DNA of 64,000 nt, from the NCBI GenBank assembly GCA_043755105.1, contig JAYUUC010000375.1, positions 53,611-117,610 on the forward strand, in the 5' to 3' direction. Both the position numbers and the translations under genes were made by a program. This stretch comes from Myxococcales bacterium (GTDB lineage Bacteria > Myxococcota > Myxococcia > Myxococcales > Myxococcaceae). This document shows, piece after piece, positions 1,730 to 37,995 of this stretch. Below the pieces are notes generated by a model. It had not been told where the DNA came from and did no database searches. It worked only from the letters and a program-made list of their open reading frames with translations. The stretch's first letter is position 1. Every line of letters starts with the position of its first letter.

Positions 1730-2751
1730 GCCTTTACAGCCCTGTTGAAGCAATCCCGGACGGCTTCAAACGACATCTTCCCGAGGTCGTTCTTGGAGCC
1801 GTCCGGTGCTTTGAAGGGAATGGGCAGAACCCGGATTTCCACCTCAGAGTAAAGCTCTCTTACAATCCAGGTCGTCATCTCCATGGCATCGGGGTCCAGA
1901 CCAAGGTAAAGTCGCTTTACACCGTGGTCCAGGATGACCTTCAGCTGAGCCGGGGTGACCTTCTTGCCCATGGAGCAGACGTTGCCCCCGCACAGGTGCC
2001 CTTTGACGGCATCGACGGGCCCTTCAGAGAGGAAGGCGTGCTCGGACCCCTTCAACCGGTCCTGGAACATCAGCACATTCGACCGAACGCCGGAAAGCTC
2101 GCGGTTGGAGAGGATTTTGGGGATTTCGATGAGCTTCCCGTCTTCCCCCTCCTCTGTCTCGGGCCAGATGTACCGGCCTTGCCAGCCCAGGAGCCTTCCG
2201 TCGACCTCAACCGGAAACATCACCCGGCCGGTGGGCGGGCAGTAGCGGATGCCGTACTGCATGGCGATCTCGCGGGGGATTTCTCGGCCGTTGTTGAAGC
2301 CCAAGGCCCTCCCTTCGGCCTCGGTCGACTCGAGGTACTTCACCCCCATCCCGGCGTGCTTGTGGTCCAGGGTGTAGGTCTCGGGGCCCCAGTAGACCTC
2401 CTGGTAGAGGAAGTCCTCGTCCTCCTCCAGCTCGTCGGGCTCGCCGTACTTGGAGAGCACCAACTCGTCGTACTCATCCATGTTGGGGACAAGGTGCCCC
2501 AGCAGGAACTCGGCGATTTGCTTGGCGGGCCGGTGGGTGAGCATCCCCAGGATGTAGGGTGCCCGCCCCTGCATCCCTTCCTTCTCGTTGCAGTACCAGC
2601 AGATGTACCAGCCGTCCGACTTCCGGATGGCCAGCTTCTCTTTGTTGCAACGGGGGCAGACCAGCAAGAAGCTGGTGCCCTTTGACTCAAAACTGATCGA
2701 GCCCTCCTCGAGGACCTGTTGGATCTTGTCGGCGAGGGCTCGGTCAGACAT
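1708..2751 (-). CDS. DNA primase (DnaG-like zinc finger plus TOPRIM)
   Basis: N-terminal zinc ribbon CPRC...CWYC. TOPRIM-type motifs SEGPVDAVKG and LGLDPDAME. ATG at 2751 overlaps the upstream stop (ATGA overlap); the track start at 2754 is TTG. Confidence 0.8.
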   Translation of the reverse strand: MSDRALADKIQQVLEEGSISFESKGTSFLLVCPRCNKEKLAIRKSDGWYICWYCNEKEGMQGRAPYILGMLTHRPAKQIAEFLLGHLVPNMDEYDELVLSKYGEPDELEEDEDFLYQEVYWGPETYTLDHKHAGMGVKYLESTEAEGRALGFNNGREIPREIAMQYGIRYCPPTGRVMFPVEVDGRLLGWQGRYIWPETEEGEDGKLIEIPKILSNRELSGVRSNVLMFQDRLKGSEHAFLSEGPVDAVKGHLCGGNVCSMGKKVTPAQLKVILDHGVKRLYLGLDPDAMEMTTWIVRELYSEVEIRVLPIPFKAPDGSKNDLGKMSFEAVRDCFNRAVKAHPAMLF

Positions 2752-3980
2752 CAAGCCTCCAGGCTCATCGAGTCGAAGTCCTCATCCGACCCGCTGGTGG
2801 CGTCGAACTCCTCCGAGGCGCCTCCGGCCAGGTTGGCTCCGTTCTTCAGGGCCAGCTGCTCGTCACGAGCCGAGAAGGCCCCTTCCGCGTCCAGCTTGCG
2901 GATCTTCATCATGACGTCGTCGCAGGCCTCGGGGTGGTCCCGGAAGTAGTCGAAGGCCGCCTTCTCGCTCAGCCACGACAGCTGCTGGGGCTCGTAGTAG
3001 AGGCCCGTCTTCTTGCCCGGGGGAGTGCTCAGGACGCCAGTCTTCTTGCCGAGGATGACCACCTCTTCGTGGGTGTTCACGACCCCCTTGTGGTAGTCGA
3101 GGGTGAACACGGCCACGCGCCCCTTCGGCCCGCTGGAGTTGTCCTTCATCGTGACCTTGATCTTGTGCCCCGTGCGCTCACCTGCGGAGCCGTCGGAGGC
3201 CATGGTCATGGTCTTGTTCTCCATCAGGTTGCCCTTGCCGTCGGTGCGGCCCGCCTTGGCAATCCAGGCCTCGGCGAACAGGAAGTGCTCGCAGTGGTGC
3301 TGGAGGCCGTAGCCAGAGGACATCTTGAACTTGTTGCCCCGCATCTGCTCGGTGCGGTCCATCTCGGCCGTCACATGGCAGGTGGCGAAGAGGGTGATGT
3401 TGTACTCGCGCTGGACCGGCAGGAAGAGCTTCAGGCCCTCCTTAATGGTCAGCGCCACGTCGCCGATCTGCTGGGTCTCGATGGACTTCTTGCCAGCCAG
3501 GGCGCGGCGGCCGAGGATGGCCGAGGACGAGTCGATGGCCACCAGACCGAGGTTCATGCCGTTCTTGCACATGGTCCCGATCTCGTTGGCGAGCCGGTCG
3601 AAGATCTTCATCGGGTTGTTGCCCTCGTAGATCACGAACTCGTCGCGGTCCACCTTGAAGGCCTTCTTGTGGGTGGGGTCCGACTGGAAGCGGTAGCGGA
3701 ACTCCGTGTCGAAGACCGCCACCACGCCAGGCTCGGTCTTGTCGTCGCCCGGGTTCTTGGCGAGGAAATTGCCCGCCAGGTCCTTCACCAGCAGCGACTT
3801 GCCGCCCTTCGGGGGTGCGAAGCCAGCGATGGACGCACCTCGACGAACGCCACCGTCGGAACCGAAGATCATGTTCATCGACGGCGAGGTGAACTCGAGG
3901 ATCTCGACCGGACGCTCAGCGCCCTGCCAGACACCATCGAGTTCCAACATCTTGGATGCAAAAGACTTCTTCGGGGCCAT
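2751..3980 (-). CDS. RecA/UvsX-like recombinase
   Basis: Walker A GFAPPKGGKS and Walker B-like LGLVAIDSSSA, with an acidic C-terminal tail. The ATG at 3980 has GGAG 6 nt upstream, so I prefer it to the GTG at 3992. Confidence 0.75.
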   Translation of the reverse strand: MAPKKSFASKMLELDGVWQGAERPVEILEFTSPSMNMIFGSDGGVRRGASIAGFAPPKGGKSLLVKDLAGNFLAKNPGDDKTEPGVVAVFDTEFRYRFQSDPTHKKAFKVDRDEFVIYEGNNPMKIFDRLANEIGTMCKNGMNLGLVAIDSSSAILGRRALAGKKSIETQQIGDVALTIKEGLKLFLPVQREYNITLFATCHVTAEMDRTEQMRGNKFKMSSGYGLQHHCEHFLFAEAWIAKAGRTDGKGNLMENKTMTMASDGSAGERTGHKIKVTMKDNSSGPKGRVAVFTLDYHKGVVNTHEEVVILGKKTGVLSTPPGKKTGLYYEPQQLSWLSEKAAFDYFRDHPEACDDVMMKIRKLDAEGAFSARDEQLALKNGANLAGGASEEFDATSGSDEDFDSMSLEA

Positions 3981-3993
3981 TTGAATCTCCACT

Positions 3994-4560
3994 TCAGGTG
4001 ATCACGTCGCCAGGACCAGCTTCTTCGGGGATGCTGCCGCTTCGAATCGGGCGTTCGGGGAAACTGGAGCCCCCGAGCACCTTCTTCACAGAGTTGTAGT
4101 TCATCAGGAAGATCTCGGCCTTCAGAGACATCATCTTCTGAATCGAGACCAGGACGTCCTTGGCGTCCACCAGTTTTTGGTACTCCGGGTCGGCCGAGAT
4201 GATGGCCTCACGGTTGTCGACCGAGTCGCGAAGGTTCTTCCCCTTCATGATCTCCGGCACCTTGTCGATGAGGAGGACGGCTCGAACACGGGCGATGGCC
4301 TTCTCGGCCTCGTTGACCTCGCGCTGGGCGTACTGGTCGTACTTCTTGGCGGTCCCGTAGGCCACCGTGAAGACGTAGAGCAACTCCGGCGCCGTGTGGG
4401 CGTTGACGACCGCCACCTCCTTGGTGCGGACTTCGGCTCGAGACAGATAGGCCACGTTCATCTCGAAAGGAGTCTCTTCGCTCTTCGGGTTGCCCCGAGG
4501 CAAGAGCATGTACTGCTCACCCTTCGCGATTTTGGGAAGTACAACAGGCAGGTCTGACAT
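3994..4560 (-). CDS. hypothetical protein
   Basis: 188-aa ORF with ATG start and GGAG upstream. Tightly packed between the recombinase and the SSB-like gene. Confidence 0.6.
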   Translation of the reverse strand: MSDLPVVLPKIAKGEQYMLLPRGNPKSEETPFEMNVAYLSRAEVRTKEVAVVNAHTAPELLYVFTVAYGTAKKYDQYAQREVNEAEKAIARVRAVLLIDKVPEIMKGKNLRDSVDNREAIISADPEYQKLVDAKDVLVSIQKMMSLKAEIFLMNYNSVKKVLGGSSFPERPIRSGSIPEEAGPGDVIT

Positions 4561-4633
4561 GGAGGGTACTCCAAAGAAAGTGCGGGAGCCTTTTGAGGGG
4601 CTCCCGCACTTTAGCAGAACTCTCGGAAGAGGT

Positions 4634-5890
4634 CTACTTCTTGATGTCCATCAAGTCCTTGAACATGTCCGCGTCGACCGAGTCGGGCGGCAGGTCCGAG
4701 AAGTCCGGGTCGGCCTTGGGCGCCACCTGGGCCTTGGCAGCAGCCACCTCAGCCGCCTTCTTCGCGGCCTCCTTCTTGGCCCGCAGCGCCTCGAGCTGGG
4801 CCTTCTGGGCTGCCATCAGGGCCGCCTCTTCGTCGACCTCGGGGGGCGGGGCCTGCACCACCGGCTTCTGGGCCGGAATGACCGGCTTCTGCGTCACCGG
4901 GGCCTGCGTCGGGGCGGGCTTCGAGTCCGGCGGGGCCGCGTGGGTCGGCTTCACGACCACCCGAGGGGCGTCCGCATCGGTGTGCGGGGGCGGCTCGTTG
5001 GCACGCACGGGCTCGGTCGCCGTGGTGGTCTTCTGGGGGAAGTTGAAGACCGTGGTGTTGTACTGCGGCGAGTTGTCGCCATCGATCAGGGCCTGGATCT
5101 GCTGCGCCGTCAGGTGGATGCCGTTGGCGTTGATATCCGGCTCGAAGGCCGCCTTGCAGGCCGCCTTCTGGGCTGCCGTGAGGGGCGCCTGGACCAGGTT
5201 GCCCTCGGCGTCACGCACGAACTCGACCGAGGTGCGGACGTCGTTCTTCGCGTCGCCGAACTTCATCATCCGGAACTTCACCAGCAGGCCCTGGCCCGGG
5301 GAGGTCTGGGAGATCCCCATGACTTCCTTGATGGTCTTGGCCTGGCCGGTCATGTCCTGGTAGGCCTTGTACTTGATGGGCAGGCGGATCGGCGACCCCG
5401 ACTTGTCCAGCGCGTAGTGCAGGTAGGCCTTGGTGACGTTGTGGGCCTTCAGCCAGTCCTCGACCGACTTCAGCTCGGCCTTCGCCTGGGCCCGCTCCTC
5501 GCCCTTGAGGTCGTCGATGGCGGCCAGGAGCTTGCGCTGACGGCCCTCCTTGACCGAGATCTGGTCGCACTTGGGGCAGCGGACCGTGATGACCTTGTCG
5601 TCACCCTGGCCACGAGACTCCTCGATGCACATGAAGGGCACCGACTGGGTCTTGCCGTTGCGGGAGAACGGGTGACCGAAGTGGCCCACCTCGTAGTAGT
5701 AGTTGCGACCGGCCTGGGGGTGGCTGGGGTCTGCCCGGATACCCATCGCCGGGAGGATGCGGAATGGCCCGTAGGTGATGGCGTTCTCTTCGCCCTTGTC
5801 CTTCGGGTTCTTCATGTCCAGCCGCTTGGCGAACTTCGCGCCACCACCGGAGCCTTCGCCTTCGTAGAAGCCATCGTTCTCAGTCGTCAT
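4634..5890 (-). CDS. putative ssDNA-binding protein (T4 gp32-like)
   Basis: YYYEVGHFGH...FMCIEE...CPKCD matches the gp32 His/Cys3 zinc-site pattern (NHGF...IETC...CPVC). GLLVKFRMMKFG resembles gp32 KVFKYRFGKK. It has a long P/A/Q/K linker and an acidic C-terminal tail DPDFSDLPPDSVDADMFKDLMD. It sits next to the recombinase. Confidence 0.55.
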   Translation of the reverse strand: MTTENDGFYEGEGSGGGAKFAKRLDMKNPKDKGEENAITYGPFRILPAMGIRADPSHPQAGRNYYYEVGHFGHPFSRNGKTQSVPFMCIEESRGQGDDKVITVRCPKCDQISVKEGRQRKLLAAIDDLKGEERAQAKAELKSVEDWLKAHNVTKAYLHYALDKSGSPIRLPIKYKAYQDMTGQAKTIKEVMGISQTSPGQGLLVKFRMMKFGDAKNDVRTSVEFVRDAEGNLVQAPLTAAQKAACKAAFEPDINANGIHLTAQQIQALIDGDNSPQYNTTVFNFPQKTTTATEPVRANEPPPHTDADAPRVVVKPTHAAPPDSKPAPTQAPVTQKPVIPAQKPVVQAPPPEVDEEAALMAAQKAQLEALRAKKEAAKKAAEVAAAKAQVAPKADPDFSDLPPDSVDADMFKDLMDIKK

Positions 5891-5941
5891 CAGAGTCCTG
5901 CCTTTCAGGGTGTTGCGGGGGAGGGTTCAGCGCTTCGAGTT

Positions 5942-6721
5942 CTACTTCTTGTTGGGGGTCGAAGTCAACGACTTCTTCAACTTGGCGAAGACCTCGGCCA
6001 CGAAGGCATCCGGGCCGGACTTCTCGATGACGTCGACCTCCACGAGTTGATGATTGCCACCCAGAATGGCCTTCGGGACCCCCGGAATCTCTTCCGATGT
6101 CAGACCCCCCAGGACCACCAGGATCGGCAGCACGTCGGGCTGCTGGGCCAACAGCTTCTCCTTCAGCTGGTTCTTGAGGTAGATGGTGTTGATGTCGTCG
6201 CCCGAGGTGGCCTGGATCATCTTCCGGGCGATGTTGACTGCGGCCTCCGTCGGGTTGGTCTTGATGACCTCCGGGTTGCCCATCTTCGGCTGGGGGTACT
6301 GGCGGATGCCCATCTTGGTGGCCTCCTCAGCCAGGGCCGACAGGATGAGGGTCTCCTGATGGGTGGACCACTGACCGGTGCCGTTCATGGAGGAGACCGC
6401 CTGGCCAACGAGCTTCGAGTAGAACTCGTCGCCCGACAGCACGATGACGTTGGGGTCCACCAGCGACATCGCCTCCATCGCCTGGGCCACGTTCTCGGGC
6501 TTGCCGGTGAAGCAGAGAAGGATGGCTCCTTCTTTCGACTCCACCTTGGTCAGGTAGGCCTTCAGAATGGCCTCGAGCTTCACCTCGGCGTCCTTCTTGC
6601 CGATCATGATTGAGGTCTGCGAGTTGTACGGGACCTCCGACATCTTGCGGTCGAGGATCTTCTTCAGCTCATTCACGTCGATCCACATCTGCGGGATGGT
6701 CTGCTTCGGTTCACGGGGCAT
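5942..6721 (-). CDS. hypothetical protein
   Basis: 259-aa ORF with ATG start. It overlaps the dnaE stop by 11 nt, consistent with operon packing. Confidence 0.6.
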   Translation of the reverse strand: MPREPKQTIPQMWIDVNELKKILDRKMSEVPYNSQTSIMIGKKDAEVKLEAILKAYLTKVESKEGAILLCFTGKPENVAQAMEAMSLVDPNVIVLSGDEFYSKLVGQAVSSMNGTGQWSTHQETLILSALAEEATKMGIRQYPQPKMGNPEVIKTNPTEAAVNIARKMIQATSGDDINTIYLKNQLKEKLLAQQPDVLPILVVLGGLTSEEIPGVPKAILGGNHQLVEVDVIEKSGPDAFVAEVFAKLKKSLTSTPNKK

Positions 6722-9700
6722 GTTCTTCCTCTTCGGCCTTCAGGTTGAGCGGCGGGGTAAGGAGCTTCACCGACATCAGGCGGGTTTCATCACTACCACT
6801 TTTTCGCCTGAGAATCACCATCACAATCGCTCCGGTGAAGTCGTTTTTGAGGTAGTAGTCGTCGAGCTTGGCATCCCGCCCGAAGATGACCTTCTCATAG
6901 TAGTAGCCGTTGACCTCGTACCGGAGCTTGAAGGCGTGGTAGGGCTTCTGAGAGGTCTTCGAGACCCCTTCCCACGACTCGGCCTCGGACACATAGGCCA
7001 CCTGAACCATGTCCAGGTCCCGGGAATCGCCCACCAGCTCGTCATTCTCGATGACCTCCAGCTCGTCACCGTCCACGCACAGGCAGCGGATCTTCCGACG
7101 ACGCTCGGTCTTCATGTCGAAGAACTCGTGGTCGTACACCAGGTCGCCGTCCTCGTTCTTGTAGAGATCAGTCCCAGGAGGCAGCGATTCGCGGAGGTCC
7201 TCGGCATAGGAAGGCAGGATCTGCTTCCGAATCTGGTACTGGACCATCGGAGTGACCGTCGAGTAGGCCTTGGCGATGGGCTTCTGCTTCTCACCCGTGA
7301 CCTCGGCCAGCACCTTCTCGTAGTACATCAGCTTGTCGATGGTGTTGAGCGGCTTGCCGTCCTCGCCCTTCTCCGGGAACAGGGACTCCATCGCCCCAGC
7401 CAGAATGAGGTTGTAGCACTTGGCACGCCCGAGCATGGAGCGGCCCCGCTTGACCTTCTTGACGTCGATCACGTCGCCGACCTTGTAGCCCGCAGCCTTC
7501 TGGAGCTTGGTGACCTTCTTCAGGACCGTGGGCACGATCTCGGTGGTGGCCAGGTTGTCCTTGCGGGTCTCGATGGCCCGAATGAAGGCTTCGAGCGTGT
7601 CGAAGGACTCCAGCTCCTCCAGCTCGCGCAAGACGGCCTCGGCGATACCCATCATCAGGTTCAGGGGCGCCTGGATCTTGCCGTTCCGCACGAAGAAGCC
7701 CGGCCGGGACAGCTTGATGTCGGGCAGCGAGATGAACTTCCCGGCCTCCTGCCAGTAGATATTGAAGATGTCGTCCTTCTTGGCATGCGTCAACGTGGCC
7801 GCCCACCACTCGAGCGGGTAGTGCTTGCGGAGGAACGCGCAGGCATAGCCGATGATGGAGTAGCAGATGGAGTGGCTGTTCGAGGTCACAACCCCGTTGG
7901 GGAGGAGGAAGTTGTGCTTGGGGTGGGAGACCTCAAGATCACACATCCGTTTGATGCCCACGGGCTGGACTCGTACAACTTTCCGACGCACCAGACTCCC
8001 GGTTGAGGCGAGCGGAGCATCGCTGTGAGCCATGCCAACCATTCCTCCTCCATCTTCCCATCCGAGGTTCGAAAGCATTCCCCCGATAATCGCAGCAGCA
8101 TCACGTCCGAGCGGCTCAGGGCTTCCGCATTCAGCATCGCATCGCGCGCCTGAATGGTCGCCAAAGTCCGTCTCGCCCGTCGAGCATTCTTCAGCTCGAA
8201 GAAGTGGAAGAACCCGTCCACTTCCACCCAGATCTTGTCCTTCACGAAGTCCACTTGTTTCCGTTCCAGGCCGCATCGAATTTGCCCCTCCTCCCAAGTG
8301 AGAATCCCCGTACTCCGTAACCACGCTTCGGCCTTTGATGCTTTTGTCGCCTTGCGAGCCAATGCCTGGAACTTCAGCATCTCCTCGGGATGAGCTACCT
8401 GCCAAGTGTGAATCCGAGCCACTCGCTCCAACTGGATTTCCCGTCGAGCCGAGGTCTTCTTCGCCGTTACGCTGGCGATAGCCCGCTGCTCGGGCGACTG
8501 GTTGTGCTTCAGGTTCTTCTGCCGGATGTTCTCCTTCTTGATCGCGGAGCAGGTTGGACACTCCTTCTTGTGTGCTGGAATTCCCCGAGTTGGGGGAGTC
8601 GCACCGCACGGCATGACCACGCCGAGGGCTCCATTCAGCGCCAGCAGGCGCTGACGCTGAATCTCCGCAGCTTCCTCCTGGCACACAAGACACTCCTTGC
8701 GATGCTCGGGCCTGAGGTAGGCCTTGATCACTCGTCCGCACTTCACCACCATCGTCTTTGCCGACACAGAGCACCTCCGTCCCAGTGGACCAGATCTCGT
8801 GCAACGGCATCATCCCCTGGTCGGTCAAGAACTTGTGGTCGATGGAAGTCTCAACCGTGGAACCATCATCGAACTCTACCAGGAAAGACAGGAGTTCTCC
8901 ATGGTCATGAACTGCAACCACTTCGTTCTCCACGACCTGGCCGTTCTCGTCCACTCCGTTGATCTTGTCACCAGCCACGAAGTCCTTGATCTGCTTGGAC
9001 TCGCCGTTGCTCATGCACAAGATTGTGTCTGTGGCAACCGATTTGTTGAAGCCGTACTCCGACCAGGCGAGGAAGGTCTGCCAGAGGTCCTTGGCCTCGG
9101 CCTCCCCCAGCTTGGCCCCAGCCTTCTCCATCCAGAAGGGGAAGGCCGCCTCGATCTTCTCCTTCTTCTTCTTGGCCACGTTCCGGCGGTATTCCTCGGC
9201 CTCAGCACCCGTGCAGCCAGTCAGCTCCTGGTAGGCGTACTGGAGCTGTTCCTGGTACACCAGCAGCCCGTAGGTCTCCGGGAAGAGCTTCATGAAGACC
9301 TCGCGGGGCTGAATCGGGGCCTCCCCACGCGCCCGGCGGGCGAACTCCACCATGGTGTTGTGCTTCTCTCCGTTCTCCGGGTTGGTCACCCAGGTGTTCA
9401 GACCACCCGGCCGGTCCAGGGCCGTGAAGGCCGACAGGTCCTCGATCGAGTCGATGGCCTTGTGGACCTCACCGTTGGCGTCGATCTTCTTCACCGAGTC
9501 GAAGTGCTTCAGCCAGGGGAGCGCGCCTGGGGAGCCGAACTGGAAGACGCCCTTGTCGATCTTGCCCTCGCAGATGGACCGGTAGACGGGCTGGGAGTCG
9601 GGGAGGTCCCAGATGTCGTAGTGCTTCCCCTCGAACGGGATGACGCGAATCAGCGGGACGCGCTTGCCGTCGATGGTGATCGAGCCCTTCTTGGGGTCGT

Positions 9701-11903
9701 ACTTCTCCGGACCATCCGCGTAGGCGTCCAGGCGCTTCTTGTTCAGCTCGGGGTCAACCCGGGTCTGGAGGAGCTTGATGGTGTCCGAGATGTTCTTCAG
9801 GGCGTTGATGGTAAGGAAGTCGTACTTCACCCCGCCGCAGGCCTCGACCGAGGGGTAGGTGTAGGAGGTGACCCGAACGCCGCCGACCGAGGTCATGGGG
9901 ATGAAGTCGACCACGGGCACGTTGGAGATGAGGATGGCGCAGGGGTGGCGGCCCTTGCTGCGGGTCAGGCCCAGGCACTTCCGCACCTTCGCCCAGTCCT
10001 GCGGGAAGAGCTTGATGTACTCCTTGAGGGCGTTGTCGCGCTCGAGGGACCCTTCGACGAAGCCCTCGGGGGACTTGTAGCCGAAGACGAAGTCCGCGTC
10101 GGAGATGCCCTGGGGCGGCTCTTCGAACTTCTTCGCCAGCTCGTGGATCTCGGATTCAACGTAGCCGCGGGAGGCTCGAGCGATGTCTTTGACGGTCGAC
10201 CGGAGCTTGAGGGAGATATTGGTCGACATCTGGGCGAAGTGGCCCGGGAAGCGCTTGGTGAGGAAGCCCGTCTCGGGGTCGTCCAGGTAGGAGCGGTCCG
10301 GGAGGTCCTGGTCGATGTCAGGGAGAGCGCCGGACTGGATGCGGTCGGGAGTGATGAAGCGCTCGAGGGACAGGTTCCACTTCATCGGCAGGGTGTGGGT
10401 GATGCCCAGCAGGTAGGCCAGCTCGAGCCCGGCCGCGGAACCACGGCCCACGCCGGTCAGCAGCCCGAGGGACTCGTAGTAGGAGCAGACCTCTTCGTCG
10501 GGGAAGAAGTACGGCAGCAGGTCCTTCGCCCCGTTGGAGTGAAGGATGGCGATCTCGGTCTTCAACCGCGAGACCATCTCCTCGTTCTTCCAGTCCATCC
10601 GGCCGTGCTTCTGGATGAGGTTGAAGGTGTGCTTCAGGGTGTCGGTAGGGTAGAACTTCGTCGGCATCGACGGCTCGTACTTGAGCTTGAAGTTCTTGAA
10701 GCGGTCGGCCCACTGGGCGTTGTTGTCCATCCACCCTTCCACCTGGGCATCGGGCAGCTTCATGTACTCCTTGAAGTAGCTCCGAGCATCGTCCCCCGAG
10801 AATCGGTGGTAGGACGTAGCGAAGCGCCAGGAGCCGCCCGAGCCCATCAGCCGGACGTCCTGGATCTCCTTCTCGTCCGGGGTGGCGAAGTGGGCGTCGT
10901 CCGAGATGAGGATGGGAATGTTGTGCTTGGCTGCCATCTCCATCATGAAGATGTTGCCACCCAGCTGGACGTCCCCATTTGGGGCGTAGGGGGTGCAGTC
11001 GTTCTTGATGAAGCCCTCACGCTTCTCGGCCGAGATCAGCTTCAGGGGCTCGATCTCCTGGAACTTCCGGGAGACCATCTTCTGAACCAGCGAACCCAGC
11101 TGGGCGACGCGGAACTCGGGCATCTTGGCGATGTCATCCGCCTTCATCTTGCCGCCCTTGTCGGTCATGAAGGTGTTCCAGGTGGCCGCCTTGTACTCGA
11201 AGCGCTCGCCCTGGAGGTTCTCAACCTGGAAGTAGACGCCCGAGTCCCAGTTCTCGTCGCACTTGTGGGGGAAGATCTCGGTGTAGAAGTTCCCCGGCTT
11301 GCAGAGCCCCAACAGGCGCTTCAGGTAGGCCTCGGCGATGTCGTGCCGAGGGCCATCCTTGTTCATGAGGTGCCGCTGGACCATGCCAATCAGGCAGCCA
11401 GACGTCATCGTGACGTTGGCCGCGCCGATCTCCTCAAGGTCGTGCCAACCGAAGAGGGGCTTGCGCTCGGCACCATGCTTCTCAGCCCGGTCATCGGCCC
11501 GGGACAAGACCCGGGCGAGGGTCTCGTAGCCATGCTGGTCCAGGCAGTGGAAAGTGAGGTGGAAGTACTTGTTGTAGTCGGCGTAGGTCCGCTTCCCGTC
11601 CTTGGTCATCGAGAGGGGGATGTCGAACGACTGGAGGATGTCGCAGTCGTCATCGCGGAAGTAGCCCTCGAGCCCCAGAATGGGCTTGATCTTGCCCTTG
11701 ACGAGCTTCTTCTCCTCGGGCTTCAGGCCAGTCCCGGACTCGCAGAGGTCATAGACCTCGCGGCAGGCTGCCATGGTTCCGTGGTCGGTGACAGTGAGGT
11801 AGCCGGTCTCAAGCTGAGCTTCACGCAGAGCGAAAGCGGCTGGTGTCGACGCAGTGTCCAAGGATTGGACGTGAACGTGCGGGGACGCGAAATTCTTGCA
11901 CAT
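6711..11903 (-). CDS. dnaE: DNA polymerase III alpha subunit (DnaE-type) interrupted by a 388-aa intein
   Basis: N-terminal PHP motif FASPHVHVQSLDTAS. The conserved YGFNK|SHS motif is split by the intein (aa 955-1342). The OB-fold-like C-terminus is present. 1730-aa ORF with ATG at 11903. Confidence 0.9.
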   Translation of the reverse strand: MCKNFASPHVHVQSLDTASTPAAFALREAQLETGYLTVTDHGTMAACREVYDLCESGTGLKPEEKKLVKGKIKPILGLEGYFRDDDCDILQSFDIPLSMTKDGKRTYADYNKYFHLTFHCLDQHGYETLARVLSRADDRAEKHGAERKPLFGWHDLEEIGAANVTMTSGCLIGMVQRHLMNKDGPRHDIAEAYLKRLLGLCKPGNFYTEIFPHKCDENWDSGVYFQVENLQGERFEYKAATWNTFMTDKGGKMKADDIAKMPEFRVAQLGSLVQKMVSRKFQEIEPLKLISAEKREGFIKNDCTPYAPNGDVQLGGNIFMMEMAAKHNIPILISDDAHFATPDEKEIQDVRLMGSGGSWRFATSYHRFSGDDARSYFKEYMKLPDAQVEGWMDNNAQWADRFKNFKLKYEPSMPTKFYPTDTLKHTFNLIQKHGRMDWKNEEMVSRLKTEIAILHSNGAKDLLPYFFPDEEVCSYYESLGLLTGVGRGSAAGLELAYLLGITHTLPMKWNLSLERFITPDRIQSGALPDIDQDLPDRSYLDDPETGFLTKRFPGHFAQMSTNISLKLRSTVKDIARASRGYVESEIHELAKKFEEPPQGISDADFVFGYKSPEGFVEGSLERDNALKEYIKLFPQDWAKVRKCLGLTRSKGRHPCAILISNVPVVDFIPMTSVGGVRVTSYTYPSVEACGGVKYDFLTINALKNISDTIKLLQTRVDPELNKKRLDAYADGPEKYDPKKGSITIDGKRVPLIRVIPFEGKHYDIWDLPDSQPVYRSICEGKIDKGVFQFGSPGALPWLKHFDSVKKIDANGEVHKAIDSIEDLSAFTALDRPGGLNTWVTNPENGEKHNTMVEFARRARGEAPIQPREVFMKLFPETYGLLVYQEQLQYAYQELTGCTGAEAEEYRRNVAKKKKEKIEAAFPFWMEKAGAKLGEAEAKDLWQTFLAWSEYGFNKSVATDTILCMSNGESKQIKDFVAGDKINGVDENGQVVENEVVAVHDHGELLSFLVEFDDGSTVETSIDHKFLTDQGMMPLHEIWSTGTEVLCVGKDDGGEVRTSDQGLPQARASQGVSCVPGGSCGDSASAPAGAEWSPRRGHAVRCDSPNSGNSSTQEGVSNLLRDQEGEHPAEEPEAQPVARAAGYRQRNGEEDLGSTGNPVGASGSDSHLAGSSSRGDAEVPGIGSQGDKSIKGRSVVTEYGDSHLGGGANSMRPGTETSGLREGQDLGGSGRVLPLLRAEECSTGETDFGDHSGARCDAECGSPEPLGRDAAAIIGGMLSNLGWEDGGGMVGMAHSDAPLASTGSLVRRKVVRVQPVGIKRMCDLEVSHPKHNFLLPNGVVTSNSHSICYSIIGYACAFLRKHYPLEWWAATLTHAKKDDIFNIYWQEAGKFISLPDIKLSRPGFFVRNGKIQAPLNLMMGIAEAVLRELEELESFDTLEAFIRAIETRKDNLATTEIVPTVLKKVTKLQKAAGYKVGDVIDVKKVKRGRSMLGRAKCYNLILAGAMESLFPEKGEDGKPLNTIDKLMYYEKVLAEVTGEKQKPIAKAYSTVTPMVQYQIRKQILPSYAEDLRESLPPGTDLYKNEDGDLVYDHEFFDMKTERRRKIRCLCVDGDELEVIENDELVGDSRDLDMVQVAYVSEAESWEGVSKTSQKPYHAFKLRYEVNGYYYEKVIFGRDAKLDDYYLKNDFTGAIVMVILRRKSGSDETRLMSVKLLTPPLNLKAEEEEHAP
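7878..9041 (-). mobile_element. intein in DnaE (Ser1 ... Asn388, +1 Ser)
   Basis: Block A SVATDTILCMSNG follows extein ...EYGFNK. Block B is ETSIDHKFLT. Blocks F/G are MCDLEVSHPKHNFLLPNGVVTSN|SHSICYS. Removing it restores the YGFNKSHS DnaE motif. About 250 aa between the two splicing lobes is G/S/E/D/R-rich low complexity in the DnaE frame. Confidence 0.8.
7886..8767 (-). CDS. Vsr/DUF559-like (PD-(D/E)xK) endonuclease ORF nested in the dnaE intein in a different reading frame
   Basis: 293-aa ORF on the same strand as dnaE but in another frame. GTG at 8767 is preceded by GGAGG (plus-strand CCTCC at 8774-8778) with a 6-nt spacer. ...WLRSTGILTWEEGQIRCGLERKQVDFVKDKIWVEVDGFFHFF...ARDAMLNAEALSRSDVMLLRL matches the DUF559/Vsr pattern (vDf..., vEvDG..H, D..R...L...G..vlR). 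N-terminal Cys pairs (CLVC, CPTC) suggest a zinc-based DNA-binding part. Confidence 0.55.
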   Translation of the reverse strand: MSAKTMVVKCGRVIKAYLRPEHRKECLVCQEEAAEIQRQRLLALNGALGVVMPCGATPPTRGIPAHKKECPTCSAIKKENIRQKNLKHNQSPEQRAIASVTAKKTSARREIQLERVARIHTWQVAHPEEMLKFQALARKATKASKAEAWLRSTGILTWEEGQIRCGLERKQVDFVKDKIWVEVDGFFHFFELKNARRARRTLATIQARDAMLNAEALSRSDVMLLRLSGECFRTSDGKMEEEWLAWLTAMLRSPQPGVWCVGKLYESSPWASNGCVILRSPTPSTTSSSPTGL

Positions 11904-37986: not shown

Positions 37987-37995
37987 CCTATCCAT

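Follow-up and report, generated by a model that had tools for sequence, protein, structure and literature searches.

What keeps the reading frame of a DNA polymerase gene open where a second gene runs across it on the same strand? The question is raised by a 64,000-nucleotide stretch of DNA (the window; GenBank assembly GCA_043755105.1, contig JAYUUC010000375.1, positions 53,611 to 117,610 of the forward strand), which is assigned to a Myxococcales bacterium and whose source is most likely a large phage. The dnaE gene of the window, encoding DNA polymerase III alpha, is interrupted by an intein, and between the two splicing lobes of the intein lies an open reading frame (ORF) for a protein of 293 amino acids that is read in the +1 frame relative to dnaE. 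An earlier reading of the bare sequence (the original prediction) had interpreted the locus as a contiguous intein overlapped by a separately initiated Vsr-type homing endonuclease gene, and this interpretation is supported by the protein family to which the ORF belongs, by the constraint on its frame and by the purging of stop codons from the dnaE frame. The positions, the intein span, the GGAGG-N6-GTG start and the motifs that it named all held when the sequence was read again. We consider it quite probable that the locus represents a mobile phage dnaE intein with a Vsr-like endonuclease gene in the +1 frame between its splicing lobes.

Absence of stop codons from the dnaE frame

For the analysis of the overlap, the protein encoded in the +1 frame was held fixed, its synonymous codons were shuffled, and stop codons were counted in the dnaE frame. 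No stop codon is present in this frame across the ORF, whereas a mean of 5.4 to 5.7 was expected from the shuffles, and the probability of finding none was 0.0006 to 0.0013 with the codon usage of the ORF itself. The rough figure of the original prediction (stop codons at 3 to 4% of codons) was of the right order of magnitude. A stop codon in the dnaE frame requires that a codon ending in T is followed by a codon starting with AA, AG or GA. At these at-risk positions 0 of 61 codons of the window ORF end in T, compared with 13% of all codons. The third frame of the same strand contains 14 stop codons across the ORF.

The open dnaE frame could be a compositional accident of a genome with a guanine-plus-cytosine (GC) content of 60%, and the +1 ORF itself could have arisen by chance. 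Open runs of 214 to 233 codons also occur in alternative same-strand frames elsewhere in dnaE, and when the codon usage of the exteins was applied, the probability of zero stops was 0.024. This chance of 2.4% applies to the high-GC window alone, and the argument therefore rests heavily on the relatives of the locus.

The ORF has 24 database homologues (31 to 66% identity, E values down to 5e-94), two of which had been named very-short-patch-repair endonuclease by JGI, and with these homologues it is not the unconserved ORF that had been envisaged as a refuting outcome. All 24 are encoded on contigs on which the ORF was called as a gene, most of them 1 to 2 kb long. Profile-guided scans of IMG/VR and of JGI metagenomes yielded 68 loci; in each locus the endonuclease ORF and the two intein lobes were located and stop codons were counted, and the endonucleases were clustered at 90% identity. 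This resulted in 53 distinct lineages (window included) on viral or metagenome contigs, 44 with an open and 9 with a fractured host gene. In the open lineages (44 of 53) the host frame contained zero stops over 220 to 330 codons at a locus GC content of 0.33 to 0.61, whereas 3 to 25 stops per locus and approximately 608 overall were expected; the other frame holds 6 to 43 stops. Codons ending in T were wholly avoided at at-risk positions in the relatives, too (0 of 55 to 0 of 121 per locus). In the fractured lineages (9 of 53) the number of host-frame stops was close to the neutral expectation (for example, 14 observed versus 12.3 expected, 11 versus 11.7, 30 versus 28.3, and 28 versus 36). 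No intermediates between the zero-stop and the many-stop state were found among the 53 lineages. The nine stop-bearing lineages are genuine fractured genes, consisting of a split intein and a free-standing endonuclease gene. In this family the open-frame overlap predominates and is maintained by selection.

The homologues of the +1 ORF and the stop purging in the relatives refute the chance explanation, since 43 lineages other than the window are free of stops, some of them at a GC content of 0.33, and since the fractured loci, which serve as controls, carry neutral stop numbers. We give a compositional accident practically no weight and conclude that the dnaE frame is kept stop-free by selection and not by chance, in agreement with what had been proposed for the two long open frames.

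Another explanation, also named in the original prediction, is an artefact in which two compensating indels hide an ordinary bifunctional intein with an in-frame endonuclease. However, the +1 relation between lobes and endonuclease recurs in contigs (more than 50) that are independent of each other and stem from a variety of samples and collections. A stop lies 3 to 90 nucleotides (nt) before the start in the endonuclease frame, which has its own Shine-Dalgarno (SD) sequence, and in all homologues the 3′ tail of the endonuclease gene overlaps intein blocks F and G out of frame. As both the frame relation and the stop purging recur across independent lineages, in the window and in 43 others, the artefact was rejected, and its probability is negligible.

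The two frames of the overlap differ in the signals they carry. In the central 750 nt, the GC content at third codon positions (GC3) was 0.68 to 0.76 in the +1 frame and 0.43 to 0.48 in the dnaE frame, compared with approximately 0.9 in the exteins; judged by composition, it is therefore the +1 ORF that shows the coding signal. When the nucleotides of 24 open loci were threaded onto the endonuclease protein alignment, amino acid identity was 0.38 in the endonuclease frame versus 0.20 in the host frame, and the three codon positions of the endonuclease had nucleotide identities of 0.51, 0.55, and 0.36, respectively, the third position being the most variable. The host-frame alignment consists of conserved lobes of ~91 and ~47 amino acids around an unalignable segment rich in S, G, E, and R. 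The comparison with homologous inteins thus revealed a constrained endonuclease frame and a stop-purged dnaE frame. The description of the region as dual-coding holds only in a limited sense, since what the dnaE frame encodes here is an unconserved linker, and this frame is selected only to stay open.

The intein and the endonuclease ORF

The dnaE product contains the Pfam domains PHP, DNA_pol3_alpha and DNA_pol3_finger and a weak match to HHH_6, and its nearest cultured relative is the DnaE protein of Myxococcus phage Mx1 (48.5% identity). The intein interrupts the conserved DnaE motif GFNK-SH, with the junctions GFNK/SVATDT...VVTSN/SHS (slashes mark the splice sites). A junction of 200 amino acids spliced in silico gave one ungapped alignment to the intein-less DnaE proteins of phage Mx1 and of 85 further records (at least 80% coverage); intein-less alleles of the same DnaE site exist in Mx1 and in many other phages. 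The catalytic and block residues of the intein are present (Ser1, S-I-D-H-KFLT, DLEVSHPKHNFLLPNGVVTSN, and +1 Ser), the H, G, N, and S residues are invariant across 13 aligned relatives, and the N-terminal splicing lobe is conserved in all related loci. The match of the intein to Pfam Intein_splicing was weak and below threshold (E = 0.0024) because of the 250-amino acid insert. When the lobes were fused by a short spacer, they matched the Ssp DnaE split intein 1ZD7 (E = 1.7e-11), Npu DnaE 4KL5 (E = 2e-9), and DnaB inteins (E of ~1e-3), and the matches to the DnaE inteins include DHKFLT and HNFLL.NG..(S/A)N. By sequence similarity, the splicing lobes are classified as HINT halves of the DnaE split-intein type. 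The essentiality of DnaE, the conserved lobes and the open frame suggest that the intein is active in protein splicing. The features of the locus are listed in Table 1.

Table 1. Features of the dnaE locus (positions within the window)
Feature	Position	Strand	Remarks
dnaE (DNA polymerase III alpha) precursor ORF	6711..11903	minus	1730 aa, without internal stop
N-extein	9042..11903	minus	aa 1-954, C-terminal end ...EYGFNK
Intein	7878..9041	minus	388 aa in dnaE frame, aa 955-1342, Ser1...Asn388, +1 Ser
Intein N-terminal splicing lobe	8769..9041	minus	~91 aa; block A SVATDT, block B SIDHKFLT
Shine-Dalgarno sequence GGAGG	8774..8778	minus	6 nt 5′ of the endonuclease GTG (8765-8767); codes ...TEV... 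in dnaE frame
Linker in dnaE frame, overprinted zone	8019..8768	minus	250 codons, G/S/A/E/D/R-rich, unconserved, stop-free
Putative homing-endonuclease ORF	7886..8767	minus	293 aa, +1 frame versus dnaE, GTG start, stop codon 7886-7888
First C-x11-H-x3-C-x2-C module	8681..8740	minus	Endonuclease aa 10-29; putative zinc finger, presumed DNA binding
Second C-x11-H-x3-C-x2-C module	8549..8608	minus	Endonuclease aa 54-73; H66 and C70 nearly invariant
Predicted Vsr-like/EDxHD nuclease domain	7952..8350	minus	Endonuclease aa 140-272; invariant E147, D173, E182, D184, H188, D209
GGAGGAGG, then two in-frame ATG codons	8031..8051	minus	dnaE aa 1288 and 1291, just 5′ of the C lobe
Intein C-terminal splicing lobe	7878..8018	minus	~47 aa; blocks F/G (MCDLEVSHPKHNFLLPNGVVTSN)
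Overlap of endonuclease C-terminal tail and functional intein C lobe	7886..8018	minus	133 nt; both frames constrained
C-extein	6711..7877	minus	First residues SHSICYS...

No second copy of the intein or of the endonuclease was found elsewhere within the window. Clusters of tRNA genes are typical of large phages. The window carries a cluster of nine tRNA genes on the plus strand (positions 37995-40703: Cys, Gly, Tyr, Ile, Ala, Thr, Val, Asn, and Met), in which two tRNAs were called by ARAGORN with unusual A34 anticodons, Cys-ACA and Asn-ATT.

The motifs VDF, WVEVDGFFHF, RDAMLN, and DVMLLRL were all found in the 293-amino acid ORF. In an alignment of 21 sequences, the residues E147, D173, E182, D184, G185, H188, and D209 are invariant, and the C-x11-H-x3-C-x2-C module is repeated one to three times at the N terminus of the homologues. 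By inspection rather than by a scored alignment, the invariant residues agree with the composite motif EDxHD and with an additional acidic residue at the position of Phe62 in Vsr; the order and spacing of this motif and the acidic residue have been described (PMC2677866, PMC3239194). An AlphaFold2 (AF2) model of the full-length protein had a pLDDT score (the predicted value of the local distance difference test) of 89.8, and a model of the nuclease domain had a pLDDT of 89.3 and a predicted template modelling (pTM) score of 0.85. When the domain model was compared by Foldseek with 350,542 PDB chains, ranks 1 to 3 were taken by 1vsr, 3r3p_A (I-Bth0305I), and 1cw0_A (Vsr-DNA), but these matches were not significant (template modelling score 0.47 to 0.57, probability 0.35 to 0.80, E = 0.13 to 0.19), and the full-length model gave no significant match. 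Besides these scores, several profile searches weigh against the assignment: the window ORF had no match in Pfam and no usable match in PHROGs; DUF559 was matched by only 6 of the 21 family members, below threshold (E of at least 0.007); a profile of the 21 homologues retrieved only noise from the PDB sequences, with neither Vsr nor 3R3P; and hhalign of the family profile, either full length or nuclease domain, against the single Vsr sequence of Escherichia coli gave a probability below 1%. Sequence and model thus provide good but not conclusive support for a Vsr-like endonuclease of the EDxHD type. Of the DUF559/Vsr signature in the original prediction, the motifs and the invariant EDxHD residues stand, whereas Pfam reports no DUF559 for the ORF. 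Site-specific cleavage of the empty allele and homing are indirectly supported by the spread of the intein-endonuclease unit over three unrelated host genes in phages with GC contents of 0.33 to 0.61.

Since the homing cycle predicts decay after fixation, and since mini-inteins without endonuclease are found at the same site (L028, L030, L035, and L037), the endonuclease of the window might be an inactive relic; only the dnaE frame would then matter, and the element would amount to a mini-intein whose long spacer is in the process of being lost. This is improbable in view of an ORF that is full length and has kept its SD sequence, its start and all invariant and nearly invariant residues of the family, whose period-3 composition still follows the endonuclease frame, and whose AF2 model is confident.

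In the window, the GTG is preceded at a distance of 45 nt by a stop in the endonuclease frame, and every related locus has a stop 3 to 90 nt upstream of the first start codon in this frame. Most related loci have an SD-like motif and a start codon (ATG or GTG) at the equivalent place. RNA folding around the start of the window ORF was unremarkable (z = -0.06), with no hairpin sequestering the ribosome-binding site like those of Dassa et al. (2009), and neither a promoter nor a terminator consensus was found inside the intein. In low-GC loci, the sequence TATA(A)GGAG precedes the endonuclease ATG (L003, ~3950-3971; L004, ~3845-3863; L013, ~2968-2986), which is reminiscent of the late-promoter-like elements that Dassa et al. 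(2009, PMC2677866) noted upstream of the genes for fracturing endonucleases.

These data bear on the possibility that the endonuclease is made as a fusion by a programmed +1 frameshift from the N lobe, or is not made from the dnaE mRNA. Initiation is hindered for an ORF inside a translated gene, no internal promoter is apparent, and Arsenault et al. (2025, PMC11855218) treat the translation of such hidden ORFs as unresolved. However, the upstream stops leave little or no room for a shift site in any locus, no conserved slippery motif was noticed and the fold at the start is inconspicuous, most loci have an SD sequence with ATG or GTG, and in fractured relatives this ORF is expressed on its own, as a free-standing gene. 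Based on the upstream stops, the start signals and the free-standing copies, the frameshift fusion was rejected, and we regard this explanation as a whole as very unlikely compared with separate initiation of the endonuclease.

The C-terminal tail of the endonuclease, PWAxxGC.IL.SPTPSTTSSSPT (in full, PWAxxGCTILKSPTPSTTSSSPT), is conserved in the homologues and is the +1 reading of blocks F and G, which places practically all of these proteins in one kind of intein. Just 5′ of this region, the bases of the GGAGGAGG-ATG feature read E-E-E-W-L-A-W in the endonuclease frame, and their position is that of the start of the C-terminal intein half (IntC) in fractured relatives, with a Met at the equivalent place in L001 and L002. 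The locus might thus be partly split, IntC-DnaE(C) also being made from the internal GGAGGAGG-ATG and trans-splicing with read-through or truncated N products; a strong SD sequence and two in-frame ATG codons exactly at the IntC start of the fractured relatives would fit, as would lobes of a naturally split DnaE intein type. But an N fragment could not be released for want of a stop codon, the internal Met and GGAGGAGG are not conserved among the other open loci, and the ATG codons are an automatic by-product of the endonuclease-frame sequences GAA-TGG and GCA-TGG. We consider partial splitting unlikely; speculatively, the GGAGGAGG-ATG may be a vestigial or auxiliary internal start.

Open, fractured and mini-intein alleles

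The fractured homologues of the window unit include L001, L002, L010, L043, and L066. L001 (Logan SRR29078260_17034, a 173-kb contig) matches the window in dnaE site, lobes and endonuclease, and in the public gene calls DnaE-N with the N-terminal intein half (IntN), the endonuclease, and IntC with DnaE-C are three overlapping genes. In the two dnaE contigs that were examined (P0006, corresponding to L001, with stops verified, and P0002), the dnaE pieces had been called as separate genes. The dnaE gene of L001 is present in three pieces (1874-7859), and pieces 1 and 2 are separated by a second ORF of 255 amino acids (4018-4785, with a faint match to DUF4379), an indication that another dnaE site is fractured by a second element. 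Mini-inteins of 185 to 213 amino acids without an endonuclease occupy the same dnaE site as the window intein in L028, L030, L031, L035, and L037; these alleles keep only a remnant of 69 to 152 codons of the +1 ORF and have lost the endonuclease.

The intein-endonuclease unit was also found in two other phage host genes, hostB (L002, L011, L014) and hostC (L017, L018, L019), and these insertions represent extein switching with preservation of the open-frame overlap. The fractured L002 nests among the open L011 and L014 in a neighbor-joining tree without support values. The hostB protein has ~350 amino acids, is encoded beside a DEAD helicase and shows the junction ..NAY/S...TSN/SET, whereas the hostC protein has more than 1100 amino acids and the junction ..MY/S...TSN/S.LVDS; Pfam searches with both proteins gave no match. 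Inteins starting with Thr are uncommon. Among L016, L022-L027, L032, and L037 there are dnaE alleles with Thr (GFNK/T...) or Cys (GFNK/C...) as intein residue 1, and some alleles of this group end in CSN and not in TSN.

A scan of 185,579 cellular genomes retrieved only one 1.15-kb contig of a metagenome-assembled genome, and the endonuclease family is therefore essentially viral. GenBank phages gave no match to dnaE in megablast searches or to the endonuclease in tblastn searches; the endonuclease is carried by no cultured phage.

Known systems and a proposed mechanism

In the fractured phage genes reported by Dassa et al. (2009, PMC2677866), among them dnaE (three loci), gp41, and nrd, a Vsr-like endonuclease gene lies between the two halves of a split intein; those loci have a stop codon and a spacer of 27 to 51 nt after IntN and a 3′ overlap of 6 to 69 bp. 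The window shares with these fractured genes the phage dnaE host, the same-strand order of IntN, endonuclease, and IntC, a Vsr-like endonuclease with its own start and a 3′ end overlapping IntC, and lobes of the split type. It differs in that there is neither a stop after IntN nor a non-coding spacer, in that the 250 linker codons are open, and in its longer 3′ overlap (Table 1). As the host frame is unbroken between the lobes, the window is not a fractured gene but the contiguous, overprinted counterpart of the fractured dnaE genes. In the sampled lineages the open state is approximately 5 times as common as the fractured one (44 versus 9).

Endonucleases outside the intein frame are known from other inteins. 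Gorbalenya (1998) is cited as having proposed out-of-frame or antisense endonucleases in inteins; Gosselin, Arsenault and Gogarten (2025, bioRxiv 10.1101/2025.01.02.630785) described antisense LAGLIDADG, antisense VSR-like and same-strand frame-3 endonuclease-VII-like cases (actinophages), and Phillips et al. (2026, bioRxiv 10.64898/2026.09.14.751524) a +2-frame LAGLIDADG endonuclease in a cyanobacterial dnaX intein. Like these non-canonical inteins, the window intein is contiguous and presumably splicing, has an endonuclease ORF between its splicing blocks but outside the intein frame, with purifying selection on the endonuclease frame, and can be read as a mini-intein secondarily invaded by a free-standing endonuclease. 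It shows the features by which such inteins are defined, namely, an intein ORF open throughout, a full-length out-of-frame endonuclease and constraint in the endonuclease frame. None of the reported cases is a Vsr-like/EDxHD endonuclease read in the +1 frame of the same strand within a dnaE intein, and the architecture, which those papers call rare, is here the majority state beside fractured and mini-intein alleles. The claim that the arrangement had not been described has to be withdrawn in view of the 1998 proposal, the preprints of 2025 and 2026 and the fractured dnaE type of 2009. For a sense-strand +1 Vsr-like endonuclease in a dnaE intein, its prevalence, and its co-occurrence with fractured genes and mini-inteins, no description was found in a search whose journal coverage was incomplete. 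The architecture is thus of a known but rare kind, and the new part is its prevalence in this family and its direct link to fractured genes.

Other systems resemble parts of the locus. I-Bth0305I, an EDxHD endonuclease with NUMOD motifs from a group I intron of recA (Taylor et al. 2011, PMC3239194; PDB 3R3P), combines, as the window protein presumably does, an N-terminal DNA-binding region with a C-terminal Vsr-like nuclease, and shares the composite E-D-x-H-D motif plus the acidic residue at the Phe62 position; in contrast, the window protein has CHCC zinc-finger-like modules, is encoded inside an intein, and has no significant sequence match to 3R3P or Vsr. The out-of-frame HNH endonuclease of a phage DNA methylase ("ShiLan domain"; Arsenault et al. 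2025, PMC11855218) is likewise a hidden same-strand ORF with its own GTG across which the host frame stays open, the in-frame reading being predicted to form a tolerated loop in ShiLan. ShiLan has no splicing domain and its insert stays in the host protein, whereas the window insert would be removed by the intein. The split DnaE inteins of Ssp and Npu (1ZD7, 4KL5) have homologous lobes, and the linker of the window lies at the canonical split or endonuclease insertion point; unlike them, the window intein uses the DnaE site GFNK/SH, has Ser1 and Ser+1 instead of Cys, and is contiguous instead of split across loci.

Based on these comparisons, the following mechanism can be drawn up for a mobile intein with an overprinted Vsr-like endonuclease gene. 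Ribosomes reading dnaE would cross the whole stretch, every stop having been removed from that frame by selection, and would produce a 1730-amino acid precursor in which the N lobe (~91 amino acids) and the C lobe (~47 amino acids) are joined by a low-complexity linker of ~250 amino acids. The lobes would associate and splice in cis (Ser1, Asn388, Ser+1), thereby restoring GFNK-SH of DnaE. Separate initiation at GGAGG-N6-GTG would yield the 293-amino acid endonuclease with two CHCC modules, a helical region and a Vsr-like nuclease domain. In co-infecting phages, dnaE alleles that lack the intein would be cut by this enzyme, and recombinational repair would then insert a copy of the entire unit. 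For conversion of the locus into a fractured gene, one nonsense mutation in the linker, synonymous for the endonuclease, would be enough. Several points count against this scheme: splicing itself, internal initiation, cleavage specificity, and homing are steps that we infer; starting translation inside an ORF that is itself being actively translated should be inefficient; and the direction of change is read from an unbootstrapped neighbor-joining tree.

We propose, with less confidence than the mechanism itself and as a tentative idea that may well turn out wrong, that the overprinted contiguous form is the default state, maintained by selection, from which fractured genes arise repeatedly by single nonsense mutations in the linker. 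If this is true, phage split inteins would originate via an overprinted intermediate and not directly by endonuclease invasion, and the mobile element itself would have acquired the stop-free -1 frame of its endonuclease gene as an adaptation. Drift in a high-GC phage, for which the expectation is only ~5 stops, may have produced the open frame first, and homing would then have carried it into low-GC phages.

For the annotation of phage genomes, the results mean that gene callers annotate only the long host ORF in open loci, so that the endonuclease is systematically missing from protein catalogues; in this endonuclease family, loci in the hidden state are ~5 times as frequent as the fractured ones that are annotated. 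With 0 stops versus ~608 expected, the family is an unusually clean case of selection only for an open frame and can serve as a benchmark for the detection of overlapping genes. The endonuclease would be a new enzyme of the EDxHD type with putative zinc-finger-like DNA-binding modules. Naturally split inteins are widely used as protein-engineering tools, and the lobes of the window appear from their sequence to form a Cys-free (Ser/Ser) intein of the DnaE type that tolerates a 250-residue insert. As mini-intein, overprinted full intein and fractured gene are found side by side in this family, the origin of naturally split inteins becomes directly testable.

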